Positions 11 to 40,878 of a stretch of DNA of 40,878 bases are shown piece after piece; position 1 is the stretch's first letter; every line of letters starts with the position of its first letter. The notes beneath the pieces were generated by a model. It had not been told where the DNA came from. It searched no databases and worked only from the letters and a program-made list of their open reading frames with translations. Both the position numbers and the translations under genes were made by a program. The stretch comes from a virus: the UHGV virus genome UHGV-0182401; one strand, written 5' to 3'.

Positions 11-30
11 TTCCCGCCGAAATGCGGGAA
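11..30 (+). promoter_or_regulatory. nutR boxB-like hairpin (TTCCCGC-CGAAAT-GCGGGAA)
   Basis: 7-bp stem hairpin about 13 nt downstream of boxA at the window end; same core hairpin recurs on the minus strand in nutL. Confidence 0.55.
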
Positions 31-87: not shown

Positions 88-366
88 ATGGAACTTACAA
101 GTACTCGCAAGAAAGCGAATGCAATTACAAGCAACATCCTAAATCGAATTGCTGTACGTGGTCAGCGAAAGGTTGCCGACGCGTTAGGGATTAATGAATC
201 GCAAATTTCGCGATGGAAAGACAGCTTCATCCCCAAAATGGGAATGCTTCTTGCTGTTCTTGAATGGGGTGTTGAAGACGAGGAGTTGGCGGAACTGGCT
301 AAGAAAGTAGCCAGAATGCTGACAAAAGAAAAAGCCCCGAAGAACGGCGAATTCTTCGAGGCCTGA
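88..366 (+). CDS. cII: CII-like transcriptional activator
   Basis: Translation from the ATG at 88 aligns along its length with remembered lambda CII (shared QISRWK and [10 protein letters not shown] motifs); AAGGAAA ribosome-binding site upstream. The 1..366 track ORF is just the open frame. Confidence 0.8.
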
Positions 367-5296: not shown

Positions 5297-5478
5297 ACGC
5301 CACAATTCAAACGATACCAGAGCTTCTTATCCAGACACGAGGCAATCAGACCGAAGTGGCGAGGATGCTTTCCTGTGCAAGAGGAACAGTGCTCAAGTAC
5401 AACCGAGACAGCAAAGGTGAGCGTCACGTAATAGTTAACGGCGTCCTGATGGTAACGCCAGGCAAAAAGGGAAGATGA
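5293..5478 (+). CDS. ninH: NinH-like small DNA-binding protein
   Basis: GNQTEVARMLSCARGTVLKY matches the remembered lambda NinH core. Confidence 0.7.
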   Translation: MNATIQTIPELLIQTRGNQTEVARMLSCARGTVLKYNRDSKGERHVIVNGVLMVTPGKKGR

Positions 5479-5996
5479 TGAGCATAAGAGAACTAAACCT
5501 CACCAAAGAACAGCACGATTGGCTGAATTGCTGGCTTGAACTGTGGGGCGCATGGGTTTATTCAGGTCGTCTGGAAAAGCGCATGAGCAGCGTAATAGCG
5601 AAGTTCATGGAGAGCGTAGAGCCGGGAAGAGTTATGACAAGGCCAATGTGCAATGATGATGATGGAATGTTGATTTCTCAGGTCGTCGATTCCGTCATGT
5701 ACATTGACAAGAAAGCCTTTGGCATCCTCCTCAGCTACTACGCTCATGGTTCATCTAAGCGAGCAATTGCATCCTACTATCACGCGACTGCAAAGCCACG
5801 CAAGATGTGTGGACGTGGTGGCGAGGGATGGAGAAAACCTTCACTGGCAACCTGTAGAAACGAAATTGACGACATCCTGAAAGCGTCGTTATTTGTTTTG
5901 TACCAGCCAATGCAAAATGCTTTCAAAATGCGTAAACGTGTTGAGAAAGTTAAGCATGTTGCTGTTAAAAGCCTTGACATGCAATTATCCATTTAG
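5475..5996 (+). CDS. Late-gene antiterminator Q (Q21/QuuD-like family)
   Basis: WGAW and CNDDDGMLI motifs resemble remembered QuuD; last gene before the candidate late promoter. Confidence 0.7.
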   Translation: MMSIRELNLTKEQHDWLNCWLELWGAWVYSGRLEKRMSSVIAKFMESVEPGRVMTRPMCNDDDGMLISQVVDSVMYIDKKAFGILLSYYAHGSSKRAIASYYHATAKPRKMCGRGGEGWRKPSLATCRNEIDDILKASLFVLYQPMQNAFKMRKRVEKVKHVAVKSLDMQLSI

Positions 5997-6452: not shown

Positions 6453-6534
6453 CCTATATGCTCGGACGTCAAAGGCGAAAGAGCTTACCCACCAGCGAAG
6501 ATGCCTTGTGCGGAGCGGTGGGAAACACATTCAA

Positions 6535-6565
6535 GCCCTTGCAGAAATGCAGGGGCTTTTTTATT
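6535..6565 (+). terminator. Intrinsic terminator (tR-prime-like)
   Basis: GCCCTTGCA-GAAA-TGCAGGGGC hairpin followed by TTTTTTATT; immediately upstream of the cargo cluster. Confidence 0.65.
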
Positions 6566-10081: not shown

Positions 10082-10279
10082 TTTTTTTGCAAATCACAAA
10101 GTCAATTTAATGAGCCTCGCGATGCGGGGCTTTTTATATCTGAATTTCACAGCGCATCTCACGCGCATATTAACGAGAGCCTTTCAGTAAGCGAGCCTGA
10201 GAAATGCCGTTATAGGTGGCGACCTCTCTCGGGCGGCTTTTCTGTGAGACAGGCTCACTTTCTAAAAGGTAAAGACGCT

Positions 10280-28934: not shown

Positions 28935-30134
28935 ATGGCTTTGAACCTCGACACGCTGGGGCTATCGGCAACGGTAACCGCCCAGGGGATTAGTGCGCCT
29001 GATTACCAGACAATCCTCGATACACTGACCAGCTATTTCAGGCAGATTTACGGTAGTGATGCCTACCTCGAACCAGACAGCAAAGATGGGCAAATGGTCG
29101 CGCTGGTGGCTCTGGCTGTGCATGATGCTAACAATACCGCTATCGAGATCTACAACTCGTTTTCACCGACGACAGCGCAGGCCGCAGCGCTTAGCAGCAA
29201 TGTGAAAATTAACGGGATCACGCGAAAAGTAGCGACAAACTCTACTGCTGACCTTCTGTTAACCGGTACGGCGGGCACGACTATCACGAATGGCTCCGCA
29301 CGGGATAAAAACGGCATTATCTGGAATTTTCCCGCGAGTGTAGCAATCGGGGTTGATGGTACTGTGCTGGTGACGGCCACATGTGCGAATAGCGGTTCGG
29401 TTGCGGCGATGGCCGGGACTATTACCACCATTAACACACCGACTCGCGGCTGGGTGTCGGTAACCAACCCTGCTGCGGCTATTGTCGGTTCACCAGCCGA
29501 AACCGACGCAGAGCTGCGCATTCGGCAGGGGCAAAGCGTCGCGCTACCATCGATCACACCGTTTGAAGGTGTCGACGGTGCAATAGCTAACGTTGCTGGC
29601 GTGACACGTCACAAGCTGTATGAGAACGACACGGGGGCAACCGACAGCAACGGGCTGCCGCCGCACTCAATTTCCGCCATCGTCGATGGTGGGGATGTTA
29701 CCGAAATAGCCCAGACCATCAGGGGGAATAAAGGGCAGGGAACGGCAACCTACGGGACAACTTCTGTCACGGTGCCGGATACTTACGGTAATCCTCACGT
29801 CATCAGTTTTTCACGCTCTACCGATGTGCCAATTTTCGTAGCCATTACCCTGAAAGTTTTTACCGGGTATACCTCTCAAATCGGCGAGCAGATCAAACAG
29901 GCTGTTGCCGACTATATTAACGGCCTGACAATTGGCGACGACGTTCTGCTGAGCCGTATTTATTCCCCGGCAAACCTTGGTGTTGTGAGCGGCGGTAATG
30001 CCCGATATTACGACATTCAGGAGCTGCTCATCGGCAAATCCTCTGACTCAGTCGCAAGCGGAAATATCGATATTGCTTATGACGAATCTGCGTCATGCGT
30101 TGCGAGTCACGTCACTATCACGGTGACCTCATGA
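28935..30134 (+). CDS. Baseplate protein (P2 gpJ-like)
   Basis: 399 aa, position and size. Confidence 0.65.
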   Translation: MALNLDTLGLSATVTAQGISAPDYQTILDTLTSYFRQIYGSDAYLEPDSKDGQMVALVALAVHDANNTAIEIYNSFSPTTAQAAALSSNVKINGITRKVATNSTADLLLTGTAGTTITNGSARDKNGIIWNFPASVAIGVDGTVLVTATCANSGSVAAMAGTITTINTPTRGWVSVTNPAAAIVGSPAETDAELRIRQGQSVALPSITPFEGVDGAIANVAGVTRHKLYENDTGATDSNGLPPHSISAIVDGGDVTEIAQTIRGNKGQGTATYGTTSVTVPDTYGNPHVISFSRSTDVPIFVAITLKVFTGYTSQIGEQIKQAVADYINGLTIGDDVLLSRIYSPANLGVVSGGNARYYDIQELLIGKSSDSVASGNIDIAYDESASCVASHVTITVTS

Positions 30135-30811
30135 GCAAATACACCGAACTGATCACTAACTACCATGCTACCAAGCCACTCTTTTTTGACCATATAGATC
30201 TGAGCACCCGCCCGCTGATTGATGTGTCCAGCACTATGTCAGGGCTTATAACAGCCTTCGATATCGATACTGCTGTCGGTGTACAGCTCGACATCCTCGG
30301 TCTGTGGATCGGACGCAGTCGCATAGTCAGCCAGCCAATTAGCGGAGTTTATTTCAGCTGGGACACTGACGGGCTTGGGTATGACCAGGGCATCTGGCAA
30401 GGGCCATATGATCCTGATTCTGGCTATACGACGCTAAGCGATGAGACGTACCGCATCATTCTGAAAGCGAAAATCGCTATCAACAACTGGGACGGTCGGA
30501 ACGACTCTCTGCCTCCCATCCTTGACGCTGCTACCGCAGGCTCAGGCCTGAGGATGCAGATCGTCGACAACCAGGACATGACGATTTCGGTCTGGGTTTT
30601 CCCTGAAACTGATATTTCTGATGTGTCTCTCGAACTGATCGCCGCTATCAAACAGGGCTATCTCACCGTTAAATCAGCTGGCGTATGGGCCGGTGATGTT
30701 GAAACGCCTTCGGTAGAAACACCGTCAGAAGGCTCTAAATTCTTTGGGTTTGATATGGATAACGAATACATCGGCGGGCTCGATGTTGGAGCATGGGGGA
30801 CTTTACTCTAA
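30131..30811 (+). CDS. Baseplate/tail protein (P2 gpI-like)
   Basis: ATGA overlap with the upstream gene. Confidence 0.6.
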   Translation: MSKYTELITNYHATKPLFFDHIDLSTRPLIDVSSTMSGLITAFDIDTAVGVQLDILGLWIGRSRIVSQPISGVYFSWDTDGLGYDQGIWQGPYDPDSGYTTLSDETYRIILKAKIAINNWDGRNDSLPPILDAATAGSGLRMQIVDNQDMTISVWVFPETDISDVSLELIAAIKQGYLTVKSAGVWAGDVETPSVETPSEGSKFFGFDMDNEYIGGLDVGAWGTLL

Positions 30812-31692
30812 TGGCAACAAATAACTTTAAAGCGTTCGCGCTTGATCCTAACGCTAACGTCATGTCACAGGCAGACTGGGAAGCGCTTCCGGCGCTGCTG
30901 TCTGGTTTTACTGCCGGGAAGGCCTCCAGTGCGCAGGTTAACAAGGCGTTGCGGCAGAGCAGTACCATGGCAGCTGTTATCGCGCAATTCATGGCTGATA
31001 AAACAGGACAGGATGTACTGGATAATGGTAACACCAGCCAATTAGAGGCGATATTTGCCAGTGCAATCCAGGGGCGTCTAATCAATGTCCGTGTGTTTAC
31101 ATCATCCGGGACTTACACGCCAACCAATGGAACAAAGTCGATTATCGTCGAAGTGCAAGGAGGAGGCGGAGGTGGTGGTAATGCCAAGGCCACTTCGTCC
31201 ACCACATATACATTGACCTCATCGGGAGGGGCTGGTGGGTATGCTAAATCCAGACTTACCAATCTTGCCGCCTCTTATTCTGTAACTGTAGGAGCAGGAG
31301 GCGCGGGAGGTGTTTCTGGAGGGCAGTCAGTTTTTGGCTCTATTACATGCGGAGGAGGAGGTGCTGGCAGCCAAATAGGCGGGTCTTATACAGCATCGAG
31401 CAGTGTAGTAACACTTGGCGCATCAGGAGGCGATGCTTCGGGTGGCAATATAGTTAATGTTCCTGGTTCGAGTGCCGATCCGTCACTTTTAATCGCTGGC
31501 GGGGCTGTGTCTGCTGTTGGTGGAAATTCAGTCATCGGTACTGGTGGGAAAGGTGCCGGTTCTTCTTCTGCTACCGGACTTCCTGGAACACTAGGCGGCG
31601 GTGGTGGTGGTGCTAATGCCGCTGGAAATACTACGTTAATTGCTGGCGGTAAAGGCGGTGACGGTATTGTTATAATTTGGGAGTTTGCATGA
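30811..31692 (+). CDS. Tail fibre protein with glycine-rich repeats
   Basis: Long Gly/Ser/Ala-rich repeat tracts (GGGGGGNAK..., TLGGGGGGANAAG...). Confidence 0.65.
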   Translation: MATNNFKAFALDPNANVMSQADWEALPALLSGFTAGKASSAQVNKALRQSSTMAAVIAQFMADKTGQDVLDNGNTSQLEAIFASAIQGRLINVRVFTSSGTYTPTNGTKSIIVEVQGGGGGGGNAKATSSTTYTLTSSGGAGGYAKSRLTNLAASYSVTVGAGGAGGVSGGQSVFGSITCGGGGAGSQIGGSYTASSSVVTLGASGGDASGGNIVNVPGSSADPSLLIAGGAVSAVGGNSVIGTGGKGAGSSSATGLPGTLGGGGGGANAAGNTTLIAGGKGGDGIVIIWEFA

Positions 31693-32087
31693 TGGCTATT
31701 TACGCATTAGTTAAAGACGGCGTTGTAGAAAACACAGTCATCTGGGATGGGGGAGGTGATTTGTTTCCTGACTACCAGGCGGTTGAACTGAACGAAAATG
31801 AAACCGCTGGTCCGGGATGGACTTATGACGGAACTGAGTTCTATCCTCCAGTTGAACCGGAAAAGAGCCATGAAGAGTTGGTGGTTGAGGCTGAGCAGCA
31901 GAAAGAAGCTTTATTGTCAGAGGCGCAGACAACGATAAGCCTTTGGCAAACTGAACTGCAACTTGGCATCATCAGCGACGAAGATAAGGCAAGTCTGATC
32001 GCGTGGGTTCAGTACATCAAAGCCCTTAAGGCGGTCGACACGTCGAAAGCTCCGGATATCACCTGGCCTGTGCCACCAGCGACTTAA
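31689..32087 (+). CDS. Tail fibre assembly chaperone
   Basis: Small gene immediately after the fibre gene with ATGA overlap. Confidence 0.6.
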   Translation: MMAIYALVKDGVVENTVIWDGGGDLFPDYQAVELNENETAGPGWTYDGTEFYPPVEPEKSHEELVVEAEQQKEALLSEAQTTISLWQTELQLGIISDEDKASLIAWVQYIKALKAVDTSKAPDITWPVPPAT

Positions 32088-32225
32088 TTTCATTTTGGCG
32101 ATGTGCCATATTTGTGTCATACGTGGTAAATCGCCTTTCACTATCTTGCGTCATGTGCCATTGAGTTATGCAATGTGAATGCGGCAATGTACATGTAAAA
32201 CAGTTAGTTAAAAGTGATTCTACTA

Positions 32226-32271
32226 ATTCGTAATGCGAAGGTCGTAGGTTCGACTCCTATTATCGGCACCA
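32226..32271 (+). other. Phage attachment core: 3-prime 46 nt of tRNA-Thr (thrW-like), anticodon loop to CCA
   Basis: ATTCGTAATGCGAAGGTCGTAGGTTCGACTCCTATTATCGGCACCA matches the remembered 3-prime part of E. coli thrW; 14 nt from the integrase stop. Confidence 0.7.
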
Positions 32272-32285
32272 CTAACCACGCGGGT

Positions 32286-33449
32286 TCACGCGATATTCAC
32301 CAGTTCAGCAAAAGCGCCTTGTGCCATATTTGTGCCATTCCCCGCCAGAAATGAGTCGATTTGCATGGCATGCTGCGTCAGGTGATTCGGTGCCAGATGG
32401 GCATAACGCTGTACCATCTCGATACTTTCCCACCCGCCCATTTCCTGTAGCGCACTGAGTGGCACGCCGGACTGTACAAGCCAGCTTGCCCAGGTGTGCC
32501 GCAGGTCATGGAAGCGGAAATTTTCTATTCCCGCCCGCCTTAACGCTGCTCGCCATGCCGTGTTAGCATCAGACCGCATTTTGCGCACTGCCTTTGTTCT
32601 CGTTCCATCCGGGCGAACGGATGATTCAGTGTGAACAAAGACCCACCGGTTATGTTTCCCCAGCTGCTCCCGCAGCACCTTACAGGCCGATTCGTTCAGG
32701 GCGACCCCAATCGCCCTTCCTGCTTTCGCGTCCTCGGGGTGAATCCACGCGACCTTCCTCTGCATATCAATTTGTGACCACTCCAGATCGGTGATGTTCG
32801 ACCTGCGCAGCCCCGTCGCCAGTGCAAAAATAACAACTGGCTTCATATGCTCGGGAAGTTCCCGGATCAGGTTCGCCGCTTCCTCTTTGGTTAGCCAGCG
32901 AATACGCTTATTTTTCGGCACCGGGCATTTGATGTTCGGCGCCTTGGCTATCCATCGCCATTCGTTGGCCGCACATCGTAACAGCGCCCGGATGAAAGCA
33001 AGGTGCGTCGCCTTCGTCGCCAGCGACGCTGGTTTATCCTTAAATTCAGGAACCGGCTTACCTCTTCGCAGCAGGCTGTCCCGTTTCGCCTCCCAGTTCA
33101 TTCGATGTTTGCGATTAACCATCGAACTCACCGCCGACAAGATCCTGTCTTCCGTGATTGCTGACAGGTCCATTCCTTTGAAGTGCATTCTCCAGAATCC
33201 GATCCGGCTTTTGTCATCGTCCAGGCTTTTCTTGTGCTGCTTTTCGTTAAGCCAGCGAACGCACGCTTCATCGAACGTTCTCGGCTTAAACTCACCCATC
33301 TTATCAACTCGCCATGCTTCAGCTTTCAGCTGATCATAGAGCTCCTGCGCTTGCCTTTTGTCCGTTGTCCCAAGAGACCGTCTAATTCGACTTCCACCAG
33401 GCGTAACGAAGTCGCAGTGCCACGTACCGGCACGTTGTTTGATTGACAT
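32286..33449 (-). CDS. int: Tyrosine integrase
   Basis: 387 aa; N-terminus resembles remembered P22 Int; C-terminal HDLRHTWAS...Y catalytic region. Confidence 0.9.
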
Positions 33450-33673
33450 GCTTTAACCTCCTGCACATCAACCGCATTCACCGCGCTATTGTGTCTCACA
33501 GACTTAAGCGCCGCAATGCAGTCTGACTTGCAAATGCGATATGGGCTTTTAGGTTTATCTGGATTTATCTTTGCGGCCTGAAGTCGTCCACTTCGTATCC
33601 ACTGCGTGATAGTGCCTTTGTCTACCTTCAGATACGATGCTGCCTCTTCACGAGTGAAGATTTCTTCTTCCAC
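33326..33673 (-). CDS. xis: Excisionase-like helix-turn-helix protein
   Basis: [22 protein letters not shown] helix-turn-helix; directly upstream of and overlapping int. Confidence 0.55.
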
Positions 33674-33760
33674 TTGGAATCTCCATTTATTGAGTTGGTA
33701 TTATTGCGGTAGGTCTGGATATCTTGAGAAATGAACAGGCCTCATCGAGTGTGAGGCGGG

Positions 33761-34105
33761 TTAGTCCTTGCGTAGCTCGCTAATTCTTCTGTAAGTCTCT
33801 GGTGCTTTGTTTCCGTGTATCTTCATTTCAGACTTCAACAGAGCAACGAGGGAATCCCATTCGTTGAGGATGCCTTTGAATGCCGGAACGCGCTTTGCAA
33901 CCTTGTTGAATGAATCTCTGATTTCTGGAATCTGCTCAACAAGTGCAACGCATCGCCGAAAGTCTGCTGCGTCATGGGGAGCACCGAAGTAATGACCATA
34001 GATATTCTTTTTCAGTCCACATGCGATTGAGGCAAGAGTTGCGCTACTGATGCCAACATCGCCAGTCGATTGCCATTTCAAAACCTTCATAGCCAAATCT
34101 GACAT
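33761..34105 (-). CDS. Hypothetical protein (114 aa)
   Basis: Start placed at the internal ATG (MSDLAMK) because the track start codon lies inside a terminator hairpin; GGAGACAAG upstream. Confidence 0.5.
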   Translation of the reverse strand: MSDLAMKVLKWQSTGDVGISSATLASIACGLKKNIYGHYFGAPHDAADFRRCVALVEQIPEIRDSFNKVAKRVPAFKGILNEWDSLVALLKSEMKIHGNKAPETYRRISELRKD

Positions 34106-34116
34106 TTCTTGTCTCC

Positions 34117-34140
34117 AATAAAAAACCGCCATCAGGCGGC
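34117..34140 (-). terminator. Intrinsic terminator within the leftward early operon
   Basis: CCGCC-loop-GGCGG hairpin followed by TTTTTTATT on the minus strand, directly upstream of the next start codon. Confidence 0.5.
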
Positions 34141-34205
34141 TTGGTGTTCTTTCAGTTATTCAATTCGAATATTGGTTACATTGTTTTCATATATGAATAA
34201 ATAAA

Positions 34206-34385
34206 TTAGCTTTTTTCGTTGCCTTCGCTTTCTTTATTAATTTTAACAAACTCGTTTTTACCACGCTCTCCAAATGCGTCTTTAGAGTCGTTGTATCCGC
34301 AATCGCAGCACACATAATCTCCAGACCATCCACGCATTGTTTTTTCTTTTGCAATATTTCCAGAACCGCATTTTGGACAAGACAT
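34206..34385 (-). CDS. Small zinc-ribbon protein (59 aa)
   Basis: CPKCGSG...CCDCGYND, two CxxC pairs; GGAGG ribosome-binding site. Confidence 0.5.
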   Translation of the reverse strand: MSCPKCGSGNIAKEKTMRGWSGDYVCCDCGYNDSKDAFGERGKNEFVKINKESEGNEKS

Positions 34386-34481
34386 ATCACTACCTCCAAA
34401 GCATGAGTGAGATGACAACGTAACATTGATTGGAGATTAACAATAGATTGCTGATGTAAAAGATATGTATAAGCTTCGCTT

Positions 34482-35048
34482 TCAAAGTGGAGGCTCTGGT
34501 AGCGGCATCCAGTGAGTTACGTCATCCAAGATATTTCCTGATAAATACGTGAAAGCTCTATATTTTTTGTAATCAATTGGATTTACAACCCAGTTCCAAT
34601 ATGCGGCCACGATTTCACCTTGACTAAATGCCAGTAACATTTTGGTTTCTTCCGGCATTCGCTCACTACAGCTTATCCAACCATCCGGAGTTACCGGAGA
34701 GTTGCCCGATAGCTCGTTCAACTTGTAAGTTTGGCTTACGAGTTCGGCTTCCAGTTCTGCTATGCGCTTTTTTGCTGCTTCCAGCTCGCCAAGCAGCGCC
34801 AAGACGGTAGCCGGATTGGCTGCAGCGATGAATTCAGCATTGGCCTGCTGTTCCATTTGGAAATCTTCATCGAAACCGCTTTCAGGATGCGCTCCTTCAA
34901 TTCTGCAAATGGGAAGATATCCAACAACGTCACGATGAATTAGCGCATCATCACAATCAAATCGGCTCTCTCCATATTCGAGCGACCACACCCCACACGT
35001 TGCTTTCTCTGCCGCTTCACGCAGTGCCTGATAGTCAATCTTGCTCAT
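34482..35048 (-). CDS. Ead/Ea22-like protein with C-terminal DUF551-like region
   Basis: 188 aa; C-terminal WISCSERMPEE...THWMPLPEPP resembles DUF551. Confidence 0.55.
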   Translation of the reverse strand: MSKIDYQALREAAEKATCGVWSLEYGESRFDCDDALIHRDVVGYLPICRIEGAHPESGFDEDFQMEQQANAEFIAAANPATVLALLGELEAAKKRIAELEAELVSQTYKLNELSGNSPVTPDGWISCSERMPEETKMLLAFSQGEIVAAYWNWVVNPIDYKKYRAFTYLSGNILDDVTHWMPLPEPPL

Positions 35049-35049
35049 G

Positions 35050-35349
35050 TCACATCACCCTGAATCCGTTGCATTTACGTAAGAAATCGCAGATATAGCC
35101 CTTCATTTTTTCATGCCAATCTCGATCATTCCCATTGCACCACCCATCAGGTGGAGTCCAGTTTTCTATCAGAGCAGCCATTTTCTTTGCTTTCGCCGGA
35201 GTAGCTGTTGCGGTATCGCAGTAATGACGAGTGTCAACAAACTTATCCATGCCATCGATATCAAGTACGCAAAACCATGTGTGATTCGGAATTCCTACAG
35301 GTGGTATTTGTTGCCCACGTCGGCGTTTATCAATGAGATATACACTCAC
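35050..35349 (-). CDS. Hypothetical protein (99 aa)
   Basis: Translationally coupled to its neighbours on both sides. Confidence 0.45.
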   Translation of the reverse strand: MSVYLIDKRRRGQQIPPVGIPNHTWFCVLDIDGMDKFVDTRHYCDTATATPAKAKKMAALIENWTPPDGWCNGNDRDWHEKMKGYICDFLRKCNGFRVM

Positions 35350-35795
35350 TGGTTACCTCCTTTGCGAAGCTCTGCGGCGAACTCGTTAAGTGATATGTAG
35401 CAATCTCCAAATGTTAACGAACCGCTCGACTGCATATGCTCCATAGCCATCTCCACGCCCTGCGCCCGTACTTCAGCCAGGAAAGCATCGGTGGCTGGGG
35501 TTTCAGTAACATCATCTTCCCATTCGCTAAACTCCTCACGACAAAAGTCATTAAATTCCTTCTCAGATTGCTTAAGCGAGGTATTTTCAGCAGCCATCTT
35601 CGCGCATTTAGCCTCAAGGTTATCAATCGTGATTCCAGCAGAACGACACTCCCGCAACGCCGTTTCTAGTTTTGATTCAAGTTCACCGAACTTACGCACC
35701 AGATATTCAGCGTTTGTTTCGTTAACCTTTAAATCTCGGGGGATGCATTTACCTTTCAGAAAACCATCCATCTCAATTAGTGACATTTGTTTCAT
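35346..35795 (-). CDS. Hypothetical protein (about 149 aa)
   Basis: Start chosen at the ATG after GGAG; the track start is a GTG 18 nt upstream. Confidence 0.45.
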   Translation of the reverse strand: MKQMSLIEMDGFLKGKCIPRDLKVNETNAEYLVRKFGELESKLETALRECRSAGITIDNLEAKCAKMAAENTSLKQSEKEFNDFCREEFSEWEDDVTETPATDAFLAEVRAQGVEMAMEHMQSSGSLTFGDCYISLNEFAAELRKGGNQ

Positions 35796-35951
35796 TTCTT
35801 CCCACTCCGCCACATTGCATTCAGATATTTGTTGTCATTAACAGAACCGAAATATTTCTCTTAAGCAATTCCTCTCTCGATGGCATTGGCTTTACGCGTT
35901 GGCGAATAATCATTTCTGCCGGAAGAATGCCGGGATTGTATGCAAGTCCTC

Positions 35952-36242
35952 TCATGATTTACTCTCCACGAACTGGTCAACGGCCATGCTAAGTGACACA
36001 CCTAAAGTATCGATATGCTGCTGAATATCCTGTAGCGTCCGCGCTTGAGATAACAGAATTTCACGGTTGCATAACTCTTTAACCAGATGCTCAAACTTGC
36101 TGTAATAACCGATACGGCTTAGTGTTTCTTTCCCTGCATTCTCACCTTCTTTGATAATTCCTCTTTCGCTAAGAATCAGGTCGTGTTTGGTTCCGGTAAT
36201 AACGTATTTGCCGAGGTCGATGTTTAGCTTCATTGTTTTCAT
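35952..36242 (-). CDS. Hypothetical protein (97 aa)
   Basis: Start at ATG ([10 protein letters not shown]) after GAGGA; the track ORF extends upstream from a TTG into the preceding gene. Confidence 0.45.
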
Positions 36243-36252
36243 TGTTAATTCC

Positions 36253-36549
36253 TCAGTCATTACTGATAGCGCCATAGCGTGAGCGGTAATTACGCAGGCG
36301 CGGGTCGATATATTCAGGGAAGTGGGTATATGTGGCTTTGCGGAATGGTCGGATTGATGTCTGGTAAATTCGCTCTCGTTCTTCTTTCTCTGCAAGCCAT
36401 ATACAGTGGCGAAATTCCTTTTCTTCTTTCGTTTCCTGCGGTAGCGACATTATCCGGTCGTAGTTTTTCCTGAATTTATCCAGCACCTCCGATACGGAAT
36501 TGCCGGAACAGCGGCGCGCGTCGTCCGCACCATACAGAGGCGCTGGCAT
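36253..36549 (-). CDS. Hypothetical protein (98 aa)
   Basis: ORF with ATG start; first gene after ssb in the leftward operon. Confidence 0.45.
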   Translation of the reverse strand: MPAPLYGADDARRCSGNSVSEVLDKFRKNYDRIMSLPQETKEEKEFRHCIWLAEKEERERIYQTSIRPFRKATYTHFPEYIDPRLRNYRSRYGAISND

Positions 36550-36562
36550 GATTTTCTCCTGA

Positions 36563-37078
36563 TTAAATTGCGTGAATAGCGTGACGAGGGAAGGGGAGGG
36601 TTACTGGCGCAAAAGGTATATCGTCGTCAAACTCCATAGGTGGTTCGCTGTGATTTACCTGCTTCTGAGGCTGCTGTTTTTGTTGCTGACCGTTATTTCG
36701 CTGAGGTGAAGACTGTTCATTGCTTCCTTGCTTGCCACCAAGCATTTGCATGGTTCCACCAACGCCCACGATAACTTCGGTAGTGAACCGATCCTGTCCG
36801 CTTTGATCCTGCCATTTTCTTGTCCGCAATTTTCCTTCAAGATAAACCTCAGAGCCTTTTCGCAGATATTCGCTGGCAATTTCTGCCAGTTTCCCGCTCA
36901 TTACCACACGGTGCCACTCCGTCTGCTCCTTTTGCTCTCCAGTTTGCTTATCACGCCATTGTTCTGACGTAGCAACTATAAGGTTTGCAAATGCCGTTCC
37001 TGATGGTGAATATCTGATTTCTGGATCATGCCCAAGGCGACCAATAATGATCACCTTATTTACGCCTCTACTTCCCAT
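36563..37078 (-). CDS. ssb: Single-stranded DNA-binding protein, with a 15-aa extension beyond the canonical DDDIPF tail
   Basis: OB-fold N-terminus typical of SSB and acidic [11 protein letters not shown] near the C-terminus, followed in frame by [15 protein letters not shown] before the stop. Confidence 0.85.
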
Positions 37079-37786
37079 TTATGCCGCCTGTTTTAGTTCG
37101 TTAACTCTGATGTTCATTACCTGAACGCATTTAGCCTGCGCATCCTCATTGCCAGCCATTAATTGCCAGTCATGCTGATAACGTTCTATGAGTTTTTTCT
37201 TGTCAGTTTCTGTTGATGCATAATCGCTGAAGTCTTTCAGGATTTGTTCGCAGTCAACCGATGGAGATTTCTGGTTGGTATTTTCTGGTGATGGTTTGTT
37301 ATCTGATGCTGGGATTGCCCAGCCCGGCAGCGATGGAGGGAGCCAGTAAAATCCTGTTCCATCCTTCAGTTTTGCCCTGTGCCACCCCTGTTTTTTATCG
37401 GGAGATGTTTGTGCGAAACCTTCCTCAAGGTTATACAGATACCGACCGATTCCCCACTGAACGGCAGCGCGCTTCATTGCACCGGAACGACCACCTTTGA
37501 CGGCTTCTACCTGCGTGTTTTCAGCAGCATCCCATTTGGTTACCCATTCGGAATCAATCTTTATTGATATGCCGCATTCAACGCCGCCGTTGTTGGGAAT
37601 ATCGCGGTATTCATTGCGCCATCCTGCTTTGCCACAAACATCGTCAAGGCGTTTCATGATTGCCCGGTTCGTAACATAAGCCAGCACCATAGCCCACACC
37701 TTGCCATCGCGTGTTTTACCGCTTTGCTGTATTCGCCATTCGATATCTTCAGGGCAGAATGGCTCATCGAATTTGTTCAAATCCAT
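37079..37786 (-). CDS. Single-strand annealing recombinase (Rad52/Sak-like)
   Basis: GAMKRAAVQWGIGRYLY motif typical of Rad52-like annealing proteins; paired with ssb. Confidence 0.65.
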   Translation of the reverse strand: MDLNKFDEPFCPEDIEWRIQQSGKTRDGKVWAMVLAYVTNRAIMKRLDDVCGKAGWRNEYRDIPNNGGVECGISIKIDSEWVTKWDAAENTQVEAVKGGRSGAMKRAAVQWGIGRYLYNLEEGFAQTSPDKKQGWHRAKLKDGTGFYWLPPSLPGWAIPASDNKPSPENTNQKSPSVDCEQILKDFSDYASTETDKKKLIERYQHDWQLMAGNEDAQAKCVQVMNIRVNELKQAA

Positions 37787-37873
37787 AATTCACCTCAGAA
37801 TGGACATGGCCCAAGGAAATAACGCTGGTTTAATACTTCGACTCGGGACAAATTAAGGCATACCCGCATTCCT

Positions 37874-38044
37874 TCGCGGTCACCATTATGGCGATACCAG
37901 AGAGCTTTCTGCGTGTACATGCGTCTCTGTAACTTGCTCTCCTTCACTGTGGTTGCAAGTGACATGAATATCTCCTTCGTTACCGATTAATTCTTTCATC
38001 TGACGAATGAATTCTTCGTCTGACCAGTTATCTGTAAAACTCAT
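37874..38044 (-). CDS. Small hypothetical protein (56 aa), coupled to the kil-like gene
   Basis: ATGA overlap with the kil-like stop. An alternative 58-aa ORF in another frame with an AAGGAG site overlaps it, so the frame choice is uncertain. Confidence 0.3.
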
Positions 38045-38193
38045 TTCCTGCGATACCACGGAATGTTGATCGCTGATTTCATCGCTTTATTTGCTTCAAG
38101 CCACATTTTGGAATCACCAATAAATCTGGCTATTACTGCTTTGTTCTGTGCAGCACGAAGCATCTGGTGATTGATGGCTATTTCATTGCGCAT
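38041..38193 (-). CDS. kil: Kil-like small protein (50 aa)
   Basis: GGAGG ribosome-binding site; FIGDSKMW resembles my (uncertain) recollection of lambda Kil; position between cIII-like gene and the recombination genes matches lambda order. Confidence 0.45.
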   Translation of the reverse strand: MRNEIAINHQMLRAAQNKAVIARFIGDSKMWLEANKAMKSAINIPWYRRK

Positions 38194-38312
38194 AACGCCT
38201 CCAGTTGTTTCTTTGCTGCTCTGATTAATTGTTTAACTCGGCGTGATAATTCAGATTCGTGCGGGTAGAAAGCGGACATGACGCCGCTACCCGCGAGCTG
38301 AAAGTGCATCAT
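38178..38312 (-). CDS. cIII: CIII-like small protein (44 aa)
   Basis: AAGGAG site; ESELSRRVKQLIRAAKKQL resembles the lambda CIII central helix. Below the ORF-track cutoff. Confidence 0.5.
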   Translation of the reverse strand: MMHFQLAGSGVMSAFYPHESELSRRVKQLIRAAKKQLEALCAMK

Positions 38313-38395
38313 GGGTAACTCCTTATATTTGATTGCATAACGAAAACGCCTCGAGTGAAGCGTTATTGGTATGCGGTAAAGCCGCGCTCAGGCGG

Positions 38396-38644
38396 CTACT
38401 CTATTTCTTCTTCGAATGATTTTATTAGTCGGTCAATAACATCATCCGTTTCAATATCATTTCCGTCTGATTGCTTTAATACATCTATTGATTCTGCAGC
38501 GGTAAATTCCATCGCTGTGAGAAACTCGACAATTGCACACTCAACGACATATCGTTCTTCATCTGTACGACATGAGATAAAAGAGCATTTAATTGCTGTT
38601 ATTACTTTTTGTTTAAGCTCTGCAGGGTAATCAGTTTTTATCAT
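38396..38644 (-). CDS. Small acidic hypothetical protein (82 aa)
   Basis: ORF with GGAG site, preceded by a terminator hairpin. Confidence 0.45.
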   Translation of the reverse strand: MIKTDYPAELKQKVITAIKCSFISCRTDEERYVVECAIVEFLTAMEFTAAESIDVLKQSDGNDIETDDVIDRLIKSFEEEIE

Positions 38645-38657
38645 CGTTTACTCCGTC

Positions 38658-38686
38658 AAAAAAATTGCCCTCACATTAGAGGGCAA
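38658..38686 (-). terminator. Intrinsic terminator within the leftward early operon
   Basis: TTGCCCTC-ACATTA-GAGGGCAA hairpin followed by TTTTTTT on the minus strand, directly upstream of a gene start. Confidence 0.5.
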
Positions 38687-39050
38687 AGAAGATTTCCAAT
38701 AATCAGAACAAGTCGGCTCCTGTTTAGTTACGAGCGACATTGCTCCGTGTATTCACTCGTTGGAATGAATACACAGTGCTGTGTTTATTCTGTTATTTAT
38801 GCCAAAAATAAAGGCCACTATCAGGCAGCTTTGTTGTTCTATTAACCAAGTTCTCTGGCAATCATTGCCGTCGTTCGTATTGCCCACACCATTGATTCTT
38901 ATCAATAGTCGTAGTCATACGGATAGTCCTGGTATTGTTCCATCACATCCTGCGGATGCTCTTCGAACTCTTCAAATTCTTCTTCCATATCTCACCTCAA
39001 ATAAGTGGTTTGCTGCCAAAACAATGAACCATCCGGAAATTCCAGATAGT

Positions 39051-39278
39051 TCATAATTCACTCTTCAATACTTCCAACTTACTAATCGCCGATAGATATC
39101 CGCGCTGATAGGGCATCATCATTCCTTCGAGCTTGCCACTTCTTAACTCCTCCCTGAGCAATTGTATTGCTTGATCAATAACCTCTGCCTTAGCGTCCTT
39201 TATGGCTTGCTTGCGGGGCTTTGCTTTCTGCTTTGGCAGATTTCTCAAGCATGATGGAATGTATGTCTGATTCATCAC
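39051..39278 (-). CDS. Hypothetical early protein (75 aa)
   Basis: Immediately downstream of the N-like gene. Confidence 0.45.
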   Translation of the reverse strand: MMNQTYIPSCLRNLPKQKAKPRKQAIKDAKAEVIDQAIQLLREELRSGKLEGMMMPYQRGYLSAISKLEVLKSEL

Positions 39279-39551
39279 TTACCTGGCTGTCAGTTGTTTT
39301 GATTTCCGGTAGCCTGCCGAGTAAATGGCTACGTTTGGCAGGCAAATACTTCCACTGCATTCTTCTGCCTTCTTGCAGCGAAGGCTTCCTAGTGATGCTG
39401 CTTTATCTGCTCTGACGCAACCAGAGAGCTTTAGCGCAATTTTTCGTGACAATCGCTGTTCTTGCATTGCCTGTTCACGTTGAGCCTGTCTGCGTGCTCT
39501 GCGGCGATTTCTGGCGTTATCGTCAGCCAGATATGTAATGACTACTGTCAT
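39279..39551 (-). CDS. N: N-like transcription antiterminator (P22 gp24-like)
   Basis: Arginine-rich motif NARNRRRARRQAQREQ; C-terminus YSAGYRKSKQLTAR resembles remembered P22 gp24; first gene after pL and nutL. Confidence 0.75.
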   Translation of the reverse strand: MTVVITYLADDNARNRRRARRQAQREQAMQEQRLSRKIALKLSGCVRADKAASLGSLRCKKAEECSGSICLPNVAIYSAGYRKSKQLTAR

Positions 39552-39657
39552 GTTGACCTCCGATGATTGACTTTGGCGGTGACGCGCCGGGTGCTTATCT
39601 TCCGGTTGCCGTCGTGCAGCTGCACTTCACGTCACCCCAAAGCCAACTACTCTTTGG

Positions 39658-39700
39658 TTCCCGCATTTCGGCGGGACAATCCCATCAATGTTAAAGAGCC
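39658..39700 (-). promoter_or_regulatory. nutL: boxA (GCTCTTTAACA) plus boxB hairpin
   Basis: On the minus strand, boxA at 39689-39699 followed 11 nt later by the same TCCCGCCGAAATGCGGGA hairpin seen in nutR. Confidence 0.6.
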
Positions 39701-39745
39701 TGCCAATCTGTTCCGTTTGGCTACCAGCTTCCTGCTGATGGCTAG

Positions 39746-39774
39746 ATAATCACAAATTGTGGTCGTACTGTCAA
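39746..39774 (-). promoter_or_regulatory. Candidate pL promoter (TTGACA-N17-GATTAT) with overlapping operator-like palindrome
   Basis: Consensus -35 and reasonable -10 on the minus strand; palindrome CACAAATTGTG at 39751-39761 in the spacer. Confidence 0.45.
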
Positions 39775-39846
39775 CACGAAATGTGATTGTTTTTATCACA
39801 ACCCGTGTTTACATTGATTTTAAAGGTAATTTAATTTTCTTTGGGC

Positions 39847-39871
39847 AACAAAAAACCCGCCGAAGCGGGTT
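39847..39871 (-). terminator. Intrinsic terminator downstream of cI
   Basis: AACCCGC-CGAA-GCGGGTT hairpin followed by a T-run on the minus strand, about 25 nt after the cI stop. Confidence 0.55.
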
Positions 39872-39895
39872 TGATGTTTTTAAGTGGCGGGTATA

Positions 39896-40537
39896 TCAGG
39901 AGAATTTCATCATCATCTGCACTGCTACGCCGATTATCTTGCAGTTGCCGTCGATTGGGATCAACGGATAGGCAGGGTTAAGCCCTTTCAGGTATTTGTT
40001 ACCGCCATCAATGATTAGCTTCTTGAACGTGGCTTCATTAGCATCTGTCAGCTTCGCAACTACCAGGCTTCCATTAACGGCTTCCTTTCCAGTGTCGAAC
40101 AGAACCAGCATACCCTCAGGAACGCTAAGGCCGGTAGGAGCTGTCATTGAGTCGCCCTGAACCCTGAGCCAGAAGGCGTCACCGACAACGTGACAATCTG
40201 ATTCATACCACTCATCCACTGCCTGAGGGTTGTACGGCTCTACGGCCTCACTCCATGCACCTGCGCTAACCCAGCTAATCAACGGAAACTTTTCCCCTGG
40301 CTTGTATTGTCCCTGATAGTTGTCGCCAAAAAGCAGTTCTGCCGGAGCGACACCCAAAGCTTTAGCTATTACCTCTGCGTCATCAACACTAACGCTTCTG
40401 GTTCCTGATTCATAGTTGCCGATCCGAGATTGTGAAGCCCAGCCGCAAAGCTCCGCAAGAGCCTTCTGTGTAAGCCCTTTATCTTCCCGTAATCGCTTGA
40501 TACGCGCGGCGATAGTTTCTGTTCTGTTCATGCGCAT
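39896..40537 (-). CDS. cI: CI-type repressor (helix-turn-helix plus LexA-like S24 autocleavage domain)
   Basis: 213 aa; C-terminal domain PLISWVSAG...VQGDSMTAP...CKIIGV closely resembles remembered P22 C2; divergent from cro. Confidence 0.9.
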   Translation of the reverse strand: MRMNRTETIAARIKRLREDKGLTQKALAELCGWASQSRIGNYESGTRSVSVDDAEVIAKALGVAPAELLFGDNYQGQYKPGEKFPLISWVSAGAWSEAVEPYNPQAVDEWYESDCHVVGDAFWLRVQGDSMTAPTGLSVPEGMLVLFDTGKEAVNGSLVVAKLTDANEATFKKLIIDGGNKYLKGLNPAYPLIPIDGNCKIIGVAVQMMMKFS

Positions 40538-40579
40538 TTTATATCACATTCCGTGGTTTAAGGCTTTACACGATTTGTG

Positions 40580-40608
40580 TTGACTATCAATCACAATGTG
40601 TGTTTAAT
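40580..40608 (+). promoter_or_regulatory. Candidate pR promoter (TTGACT-N17-TTTAAT) with operator-like palindromes
   Basis: In the cI-cro intergenic region; ACACGATTTGTGT and TCACAATGTGTG nearby. Confidence 0.45.
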
Positions 40609-40641
40609 AAAGACTGAGTGAACTAGCTCTTAAGGAAACCT

Positions 40642-40857
40642 ATGAACAACATTGCCAACGAACGGAAAAAGCTTGGCATCACTCAATCTGCGTTAGCAGG
40701 CGCGTGTGGCTGGAACCAGTCCCGCTTAGCTAACTACGAGTCAGGTATCCGGACTCCAGATTTAGAGTCGTGCCGTAGCCTGGTAAAGGCGCTGAATAAA
40801 TTGGGGAGCAAGACAACGCTAGATGGCTTGTTCCCGCCGCGTAAGAACGCCGCATAA
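40642..40857 (+). CDS. cro: Cro-like helix-turn-helix regulator
   Basis: 71 aa XRE-type helix-turn-helix (LGITQSALAGACGWNQSRLANYESG), divergent from cI. Confidence 0.7.
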   Translation: MNNIANERKKLGITQSALAGACGWNQSRLANYESGIRTPDLESCRSLVKALNKLGSKTTLDGLFPPRKNAA

Positions 40858-40863
40858 GCAAAT

Positions 40864-40875
40864 TGCTCTTTAACA
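40864..40875 (+). promoter_or_regulatory. nutR boxA (TGCTCTTTAACA)
   Basis: Matches the rrn-type boxA consensus as remembered; its boxB partner is at positions 11-30. Confidence 0.55.
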
Positions 40876-40878
40876 GTC

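Follow-up and report, generated by a model that had tools for sequence, protein, structure and literature searches.

Predicted intrinsic terminators ahead of two accessory genes are conserved landmarks of the PL operon in a lambdoid phage genome

The DNA analysed was the virus genome UHGV-0182401, hereafter the window, in its full length of 40,878 nt. From the putative PL promoter to the integrase gene, the following features were identified.

39746–39774, minus strand: PL-like promoter (TTGACA, 17 nt, GATTAT, with TG)
39700–39690 and 39676–39659, minus strand: nutL candidate, consisting of boxA GGCTCTTTAAC and boxB hairpin TCCCGCCGAAATGCGGGA, respectively
39279–39551, minus strand: gene for an N-like antiterminator of 90 aa with the arginine-rich motif NARNRRRARRQAQRE (PF25694, phrog_271)
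39024–39054, minus strand: 14-bp hairpin and then TGTTTTGG, beyond N and orf75, where lambda has tL1
38745–38658, minus strand: 88-nt copy of the PreS/LPR1 sRNA, by alignment to lambda LPR1, with identical seed TTGTTCTGATTATTGG
38686–38658, minus strand: predicted intrinsic terminator T2, orthologue of lambda tL2a (lambda 33952–33925)
38396–38654, minus strand: Shine-Dalgarno (SD) sequence GGAG (38654–38651) and cassette gene orf82, ATG at 38644 (phrog_14587, 'anti-restriction protein')
38397–38376 and 38364–38339, minus strand: right edge of the T2 slot, hairpin AGCCGCCTGAGCGCGGCT plus TTAC, and cIII leader with a tL2b-like hairpin, respectively
34206–34385, minus strand: eaG-like zinc-ribbon gene upstream of T1, near-identical to eaG of P22 and phage L
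34143–34179, minus strand: conserved 37-nt block (GTAACCAATATTCGAATTGAATAACTGAAAGAACACC) directly 5' of the T1 hairpin, common to lambda, P22, L, 434 and HK629
34142–34117, minus strand: predicted intrinsic terminator T1, hairpin plus T-run, with a 20-nt hairpin identical to lambda 29128–29109
33761–34116, minus strand: SD sequence GGAG (34116–34113) and cassette gene orf114, ATG at 34105 (phrog_1229; phage 434 ORF114 type)
33673–33326 and 33449–32286, minus strand: xis (phrog_2907 excisionase, HTH_17) and int, beyond T1

The PL-like promoter was the best promoter-like site in nt 30000–40878 (10/12 matches) and was flanked by nutL/N on one side and by the cI-like repressor gene and its terminator on the other. 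The initial annotation had proposed an N-like antiterminator and a nutL site upstream of the hairpins, and both were found: the predicted protein matched Pfam PF25694 (N_peptide) with 57.4 bits (cut-off 27.9) and phrog_271 with an E value of 4.5e-34, and was 97.8% identical to N of mEp213, while the nutL candidate was mirrored after cro by nutR (nt 40864–40874 and 12–29), which had an identical boxB and shared the boxA core GCTCTTTAAC. The two parts of nutR are contiguous in phage ECP1. The hairpin at the tL1 position had a folding energy of -18.1 kcal/mol (z = -4.66).

T1 read AAGCCGCC-TGAT-GGCGGTTT on the minus strand (nt 34142–34123), followed by the T-run TTTTTTATT ending at nt 34117, and T2 read TTGCCCTC-TAATGT-GAGGGCAA (nt 38686–38665), followed by T7 at nt 38664–38658. 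Each contained an 8-bp stem with 5 G-C pairs, with a tetraloop and T6ATT in T1 and a 6-nt loop and T7 in T2, which is the structure defining an intrinsic terminator, in both cases on the transcribed strand of the PL operon. The hairpin energies were -12.4 (T1) and -13.8 kcal/mol (T2), and folding of the 71-nt contexts gave z values of -2.5 and -3.4, respectively, relative to shuffled sequences. The arrangement originally described, a hairpin and T-run followed within 10–15 nt by a ribosome binding site and start codon on the minus strand, was thus confirmed at both sites by the stems, the GGAG and the ATG, with gaps of 11 nt (T1) and 13 nt (T2) between the last T and the ATG. The start of orf114 as called mechanically, nt 34132, fell inside the T1 hairpin loop, and nt 34105 is the likelier start.

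A strict scan (stem of at least 7 bp, at least 5 G-C pairs, at least 6 T in 8) detected about 9 separate sites across the 40.9 kb of the window versus 0.45 ± 0.68 (maximum 3) in 100 dinucleotide shuffles, that is, terminator-like sites were about 20-fold commoner in the window; 4 of these sites were on the transcribed strand, inside the PL operon or immediately upstream of it. A looser scan gave 22 sites versus 10.9 ± 3.9 expected. A chance origin of these hairpin/T-run sites was ruled out by the shuffle comparison, and bidirectional termination at T1 and T2 was rejected on account of poor plus-strand T-tracts. By sequence and fold, both hairpins were thereby confirmed as predicted canonical intrinsic terminators of the minus strand. 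Compensatory covariation was not observed in the stems of T1 and T2, the copies being too alike to back the stems independently; at loci not selected on the hairpin, the variants were one-sided G.U to A-U changes, loop changes, or rare disruptions such as the GGAGG variant of 434.

The copy of PreS/LPR1 ending at T2 lay downstream of an orf28/ral remnant, in which ral was deleted and frameshifted, and upstream of the cIII leader. With LPR1 delimited by the cloning primer P810 at its 5' end and by tL2a at its 3' end, it matched lambda LPR1 at 85 of 88 positions, the differences being 3 substitutions (2 in the loop and one G.U to A-U) and one extra T, none of them in the seed. The lambda counterpart of the T2 hairpin itself is at nt 33952–33931. 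The window, lambda, Sf6 and ECP1 were nearly identical over about 170 nt up to the T-run of T2, with similarity ending just after the T-run or the SD; the Sf6 record labels its copy 'tL2A, homology to phage lambda', as part of a 'bsq4 boundary sequence'. In lambda, PreS/LPR1 is an Hfq-dependent sRNA that accumulates during the lytic cycle, raises dnaN translation and supports lytic replication; its 3' end is tL2a, a reported termination site between ral and ea10 (10.1101/2024.10.31.621285). By sequence, T2 is identified as the tL2a orthologue, predicted to form the terminator hairpin and U-tail of PreS. That T2 coincides with the 3' end of PreS had been overlooked in the initial annotation.

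No match was obtained when the whole window was searched against Rfam at gathering thresholds, PreS being absent from Rfam 15, and an E-value search of nt 33000–40878 returned only chance-level matches (SraG, rsmX, mir-15). Inspection by eye of the region 5' of PreS revealed no convincing -35/-10 pair, a sigma-70 scan detected no site able to drive PreS, and its biogenesis is not defined in the preprint (10.1101/2024.10.31.621285). If read-through of tL2a by N-modified polymerase were efficient, the origin of the PreS 3' end would be left without explanation. A CUUCUU tract 5' of the T2 hairpin was considered as an anti-SD clamp; its predicted pairing with the SD was strong in three cassette types (P = 0.73–0.99) but reached only 0.35 in lambda, the SD of the window had a different pairing partner, and the clamp was rejected as a general mechanism. 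Nt 38745–38658 merit annotation as a PreS/LPR1 sRNA gene, which is missing from almost all phage records inspected.

For T1, the lambda counterpart has been predicted by ARNold as 't5 lambda' (PMC4195576, Table 4), the only paper found in a literature search with the hairpin sequence; no experiment on T1 was found, and it stands as a predicted or annotated terminator. The records of P22 and phage L annotate a terminator at this site, between eaG and eaC and 10–17 nt before eaC, and the order eaG, terminator, cassette, xis and int was the same in the window, P22 and L. The eaG-like gene (38.9% GC) had a weak match to Lar_restr_allev, under the Pfam cut-off. The 37-nt block sat behind differing upstream modules in lambda, P22, L, 434 and HK629; in lambda and 434 it is the 3'-terminal part of ORF55, but in the window it is non-coding. 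A tL4 is annotated in the 434 record, upstream of ORF55. On sequence grounds T1 is assigned as orthologous to the terminator just upstream of PI/xis in lambda and to the eaG-eaC terminator of P22 and L, and as such would be the last terminator before xis and int.

The initial annotation had named independent promoters of the downstream genes as evidence that would count against its reading; none appeared. No sigma-70-like promoter (at least 9/12 matches) was detected between T1 or T2 and the genes behind them, no cII-type site between T2 and the genes behind it, and no match to the cII-type site TTGC-N6-TTGC, even with one mismatch, on the minus strand from T1 to int. With no cII-type PI site detected, this phage may obtain Xis and Int mainly by read-through of T1, which, if so, matters for prophage stability. 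The N-like protein, nutL and nutR being present, N-dependent read-through of T1 and T2 is the likely mechanism: polymerase lacking N modification at nutL should stop at T1 and T2, and N-modified polymerase should read through into orf82-cIII-kil-erf and the genes following, and into orf114-xis-int, as judged by homology.

The genes immediately behind the terminators were variable. The GC content of orf82 was 34.9% versus 50.9% for the genome; the T2 slot is occupied elsewhere by ea10 (lambda), followed by the same right-hand hairpin and cIII leader as in the window, by gene 33 (Sf6), or by nothing (mEpX1), where the cIII leader alone is joined to tL2a. Of 40 loci chosen independently of T2, 19 had tL2a fused directly to the cIII leader in this way. 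At the position of orf114, P22 has eaC, with the SD and ATGTCAG in common. Among the matches listed, 125 T1 loci showed 16 pairings of 5 module types upstream with 7 downstream, and 115 T2 loci showed 38 pairings of 21 types upstream with 6 downstream, counts that are only indicative because the IMG/VR samples are redundant. Sequence identity persisted through the T-run and SD and then broke. Both odd composition and presence/absence polymorphism, as expected of morons, were thus seen (orf82 and the empty T2 slots), whereas a promoter of their own was not, given the 11–13 nt from T-run to ATG and no promoter-like site near orf82 or orf114; because of this, they are not classical morons. The block of terminator, T-run and SD probably forms a conserved left edge to a variable slot, directly behind which recombination within the slot would have placed differing promoter-less cassettes, or none. 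Such a border position would explain why the terminators touch start codons, orf82 and orf114 being cassettes without promoters of their own that occupy two hot slots of the PL operon.

That the terminators were set against these start codons for the very purpose of confining orf82 and orf114 to strictly N-dependent, delayed-early expression, as the initial annotation implied, would agree with the presence of N and nutL and with a spacing that leaves no room for a promoter, yet it appears unlikely. The claim that they are placed to gate these genes was not supported, since each stays with its upstream block rather than with the downstream gene and, among the matches listed, precedes 6–7 unrelated cassettes or none; moreover, the whole downstream operon (cIII, kil, erf, xis, int) would be affected equally, not the adjacent gene alone. 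T2 also occurs in the Nun-type phages mEpX1 and mEp235, whose relative HK022 uses put RNA and is not known to use an N protein. The opposite assignment, in which the hairpins terminate independently transcribed upstream morons (eaG; ral/orf28) and are not landmarks of the PL operon, draws on the low GC content of eaG just upstream of T1, but is very improbable, as neither the region 5' of eaG nor the ral-PreS region contained a promoter-like site with at least 9/12 matches, and T1 and T2 lie behind 5 and 21 upstream modules, respectively, among the matches listed.

Conservation of the full 88-nt PreS with its seed, whatever the downstream cassette or antiterminator type, together with the documented function of PreS in lambda, raises the possibility that T2 is chiefly the Hfq-binding terminator module of PreS and affects downstream transcription incidentally. 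This is conceivable although doubtful: the two roles are compatible with each other, the hairpin and U7 tract are those of a canonical terminator, and a source cited by the preprint had already named tL2a as a site of PL termination when PreS was still undiscovered (10.1101/2024.10.31.621285). The T1 block (37 nt plus hairpin, about 63 nt) resembles PreS in architecture, a GC hairpin and U-tail preceded by a short, conserved A-rich segment with little structure, and it shows 95–99% conservation across differing flanks and is non-coding where it lies behind eaG, but we consider it quite unlikely to be another 3'-end-derived sRNA of the PreS kind. The 37 nt form the 3' end of ORF55 in most loci, which could account for their conservation, the block had no Rfam match, and the lambda RIL-seq study, in its available portion, names only LPR1, LPR2 and 6S and makes no mention of the xis or ea8.5 region. 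Similarly improbable is the extended proposal that nt 34179–34117 encode a further Hfq-binding sRNA of the PreS type, freed from the PL transcript just upstream of xis/int, with sRNA/terminator and SD blocks as selected docking sites for cassette exchange.

The T1 and T2 elements were present in 151 and 325 phage records, respectively, and each in 2,228 of 5,426 complete E. coli genomes. Taken together, the window quite probably represents a complete mosaic lambdoid temperate phage with its PL operon on the minus strand, in which the two hairpins are conserved Rho-independent terminators, T2 as tL2a and the end of PreS and T1 as the orthologue of the lambda, P22 and L element, read through with the help of N and bordering variable slots. 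T1 and T2 are fixed landmarks of the PL operon, not dedicated gates, and neither is new, near-identical elements being already present in lambda and P22. The finding is ordinary because the terminators are near-copies of these elements and the genes behind them are swappable; the classical delayed-early design of lambda is re-found with little new biology, and the gain lies in corrections to annotation.

As in lambda, PL is followed by nutL (boxA and boxB), N and a series of intrinsic terminators, and of the lambda PL terminators (tL1, the tL2 cluster, tL3 and tL4) tL2a- and tL2b-like hairpins are conserved in the window; however, the N-like protein has nothing but the arginine-rich motif in common with lambda N, and boxB differs (CCCGC-CGAAAT-GCGGG). 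The tL2a/PreS region agrees with that of lambda in the seed, in position after ral and before the next PL gene, and in the hairpin and U-tail, but has U7 versus U6, two altered loop bases, A-U for G.U, orf82 in place of ea10, and the damaged ral. The eaG-eaC terminator of P22 and L and t5 of lambda share the 20-nt hairpin and T-run with T1, with one base different in the 37-nt block; P22 and L, unlike lambda, also share the SD and ATGTCAG behind the terminator but have eaC downstream versus the 434-type ORF114 in the window, whereas lambda has no cassette after its counterpart, the T-run of which abuts the cII site of PI. Unlike classical promoter-gene-terminator morons, the cassettes of the window have no promoter of their own; their surroundings resemble the bsq4 'boundary sequences' of Sf6, in which a conserved non-coding block separates interchangeable modules and which comprise exactly the PreS/tL2A stretch.

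The genome is complete and circularly permuted, and belongs to a mosaic lambdoid temperate phage whose early-left region was closest to Escherichia phages ECP1, mEpX2, Sf6, and HK75, and whose structural genes most resembled those of Citrobacter phage Omnitron and E. coli vB_EcoM-606R2-type phages. The nutR site, unsplit in ECP1, spanned the window end and start (40864-40878 joined to 1-29); therefore, the window is the entire genome, circularly permuted, with its ends lying inside nutR. The PL operon occupied the minus strand, with the following elements in transcription order, nutR being given last:

39774-39746, minus strand: PL-like promoter
39700-39690, minus strand: nutL boxA
39676-39659, minus strand: nutL boxB hairpin
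39551-39279, minus strand: N-like gene (PF25694, 57.4 bits versus a cut-off of 27.9; phrog_271)
no coordinates, minus strand: orf75
39054-39024, minus strand: 14-bp hairpin at the tL1 position
between this hairpin and T2, minus strand: orf28 and a deleted ral
38745-38658, minus strand: PreS copy, by alignment to lambda
38686-38665, minus strand: T2 hairpin, UUGCCCUC-UAAUGU-GAGGGCAA
38664-38658, minus strand: T2 U-tract, U7
38654-38651, minus strand: GGAG
38644, minus strand: AUG behind T2
then, minus strand: orf82, cIII, kil, erf, ssb, abc2, further genes, an Ead/Ea22-like gene, and eaG
34142-34123, minus strand: T1 hairpin, AAGCCGCC-UGAU-GGCGGUUU
to 34117, minus strand: T1 U-tract, U6AUU
34116-34113, minus strand: GGAG
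34105, minus strand: AUG behind T1
then, minus strand: orf114, xis, and int
40864-40874 and 12-29, plus strand: nutR boxA TGCTCTTTAAC and boxB TCCCGCCGAAATGCGGGA

Further elements were observed around these genes. In the ral remnant (38862-38918, minus strand), about 120 bp had been lost internally between short TGG(G/A)CAAT repeats, causing a frameshift with the product MTTTIDKNQWCGQYERRQ*, and this form was also present in several IMG/VR loci and ECP1. A tR1-like hairpin followed nutR (about 35-75). Between the cI-like repressor gene (39896-40537) and PL, immediately behind the gene, a hairpin at 39853-39872 (both strands) had a U-run that was good on the minus strand and weaker on the plus strand, resembling the immunity-region terminator of lambda. 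Strong terminators were located at 334-362 (minus strand), antisense to cII (88-366; PF05269) at the 3′-end of that gene, as in lambda OOP RNA, and with no Rfam match; at 6533-6558 (plus strand), separated from a Q antiterminator gene (5475-5996; PF06530) upstream by about 540 nt that include a 128-aa minus-strand ORF; and at 10113-10131 (plus strand), directly after the holin/Rz lysis genes.

T1 and T2 had canonical terminator anatomy, with hairpin energies of -12.4 and -13.8 kcal/mol and local folds at z = -2.5 and -3.4 relative to shuffles, respectively. Under a strict definition (stem of at least 7 bp, at least 5 G-C pairs, at least 6 T in 8), about 9 terminator sites were found in the window versus 0.45 ± 0.68 in 100 dinucleotide shuffles, which excludes chance; both sites are real. 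The initial annotation, which described a terminator-like hairpin and T-run, a ribosome binding site, and a start codon at both positions, agreed with these coordinates and folds, and its N-like antiterminator with nutL upstream was borne out by the PF25694/phrog_271 gene and by boxA and boxB matching nutR (boxA core common, boxB identical). This observation is confirmed and the finding is already known; the interpretation, that the downstream genes are expressed only after N-mediated antitermination, is partly supported. Read-through RNA of the region 38645-38700 (minus strand) can form a pairing between the SD immediately 3′ of the U-run and a CUUCUU tract immediately 5′ of the T2 hairpin; this was strongly predicted for three cassette types and not for lambda, and the window SD pairs elsewhere.

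About 170 nt up to the T2 U-run were near-identical across the window, lambda, Sf6, and ECP1, similarity ending just past the T-run or SD. The hairpin lies between ral and ea10 in lambda (33952-33931), and the Sf6 record labels its copy "tL2A, homology to phage lambda", inside "bsq4; boundary sequence". The tL2 cluster was reportedly described by Luk and Szybalski (Virology, 1983). In lambda, this region encodes the Hfq-dependent sRNA LPR1/PreS of about 88 nt (processed form about 68 nt), which has tL2a as its 3′-end, is expressed in the lytic cycle, raises dnaN translation, and supports replication of the phage DNA (10.1101/2024.10.31.621285). With the 5′-end taken from the cloning primer of that study, the window copy had a seed identical to that of lambda and differed in two loop bases, one G.U changed to A-U, and one extra U. 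Judged by sequence, T2 is orthologous to lambda tL2a/PreS; the near-identical lambda copy reveals an identity missed when T2 was read as a plain terminator. Rfam 15 has no model for PreS; the 88-nt sequence occurred in 325 phage records and 2,228 of 5,426 complete E. coli genomes. At its left edge (38796-38829, minus strand), the conserved PreS block had another terminator U-run (CTTTATTTTTGG), before which upstream modules in IMG/VR loci supplied differing hairpins (GCTGCC..TGGC, GGCCG..CGGCC, and AACCCGC..GCGGGTT); the window version was weak (z = +1.2).

The 20-nt T1 hairpin was identical in lambda (29128-29109), where it corresponds to "t5 lambda", an ARNold prediction (PMC4195576). Records of P22virB-3 and phage L annotate a terminator at this element, between eaG and eaC, and the window was near-identical to them across eaG, the hairpin, SD, and ATGTCAG, diverging thereafter; T1 is, from this match, orthologous to the P22/L eaG-eaC terminator. 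The phage 434 record has the order tL4, ORF55, T1 hairpin, ORF114, xis, int, and the window orf114 was of the 434 type. Phage records carrying the 68-nt T1 block numbered 151, some of them from Salmonella and Shigella phages; 2,228 of the 5,426 E. coli genomes had it too, exactly the count obtained for PreS. The block is unlikely to be a second PreS-like sRNA. No experimental test of T1 was found in the literature.

By homology, read-through of T1 and T2 is likely N-dependent: polymerase lacking N modification would stop at T2 and T1, N-modified polymerase would read through both, and all genes distal to each terminator, not the adjacent gene alone, would be delayed-early, T2 having the added role of hairpin and U-tail of PreS. 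Consistent with the initial annotation, no promoter-like or cII-type site was present between T1 or T2 and the genes behind each. T2 also occurs in the Nun-type phages mEpX1 and mEp235, whose relative HK022 relies on put RNA, not N, for antitermination; if put RNA replaces N in this group, the element would not be tied to one antiterminator. The preprint on PreS does not cover how the 3′-end of this RNA arises under suppression of termination by N (10.1101/2024.10.31.621285). A perfect PRE-type site was located at 121-134. Ahead of int or xis (32286-34105, minus strand), the coding strand contained no TTGC-N6-TTGC (cII/C1) site even when one mismatch was allowed, nor was a PI-like promoter recognisable there, so int may depend on T1 read-through.

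IMG/VR loci with each hairpin were collected and their flanks clustered into module types. Among the matches listed, T1 was flanked by 5 upstream and 7 downstream types in 16 combinations (125 loci), and T2 by 21 and 6 types in 38 combinations (115 loci). Identity crossed the U-run and SD and then broke, the shared sequence ending in ...TTTTTTATTGGAGACAAGAAATGTCAGA for T1 and ...TTTTTTTGACGGAG for T2, with an ATG 9-20 nt past the U-run in most downstream types. In 40 loci chosen without selection on T2, the PreS seed was followed by the hairpin in 39, and in 19 the hairpin was joined straight to the cIII leader (compare mEpX1), which is an empty slot. Varied modules on both sides, the identity break after the SD, and empty slots thus mark the terminators as fixed landmarks, the "accessory early genes" being promoter-less cassettes dropped in behind them; that unrelated cassettes or none follow the same hairpins speaks against dedicated gates for accessory genes. 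The GC content of orf82 was 34.9% versus 50.9% for the genome. The same second hairpin closes the right side of the unrelated cassettes orf82 in the window and ea10 in lambda, followed in both by the cIII leader with tL2b. Behind T1, lambda has no cassette: the U-run of its counterpart adjoins the TTGC-N6-TTGC cII site of PI, with the xis start a further 27 nt away.
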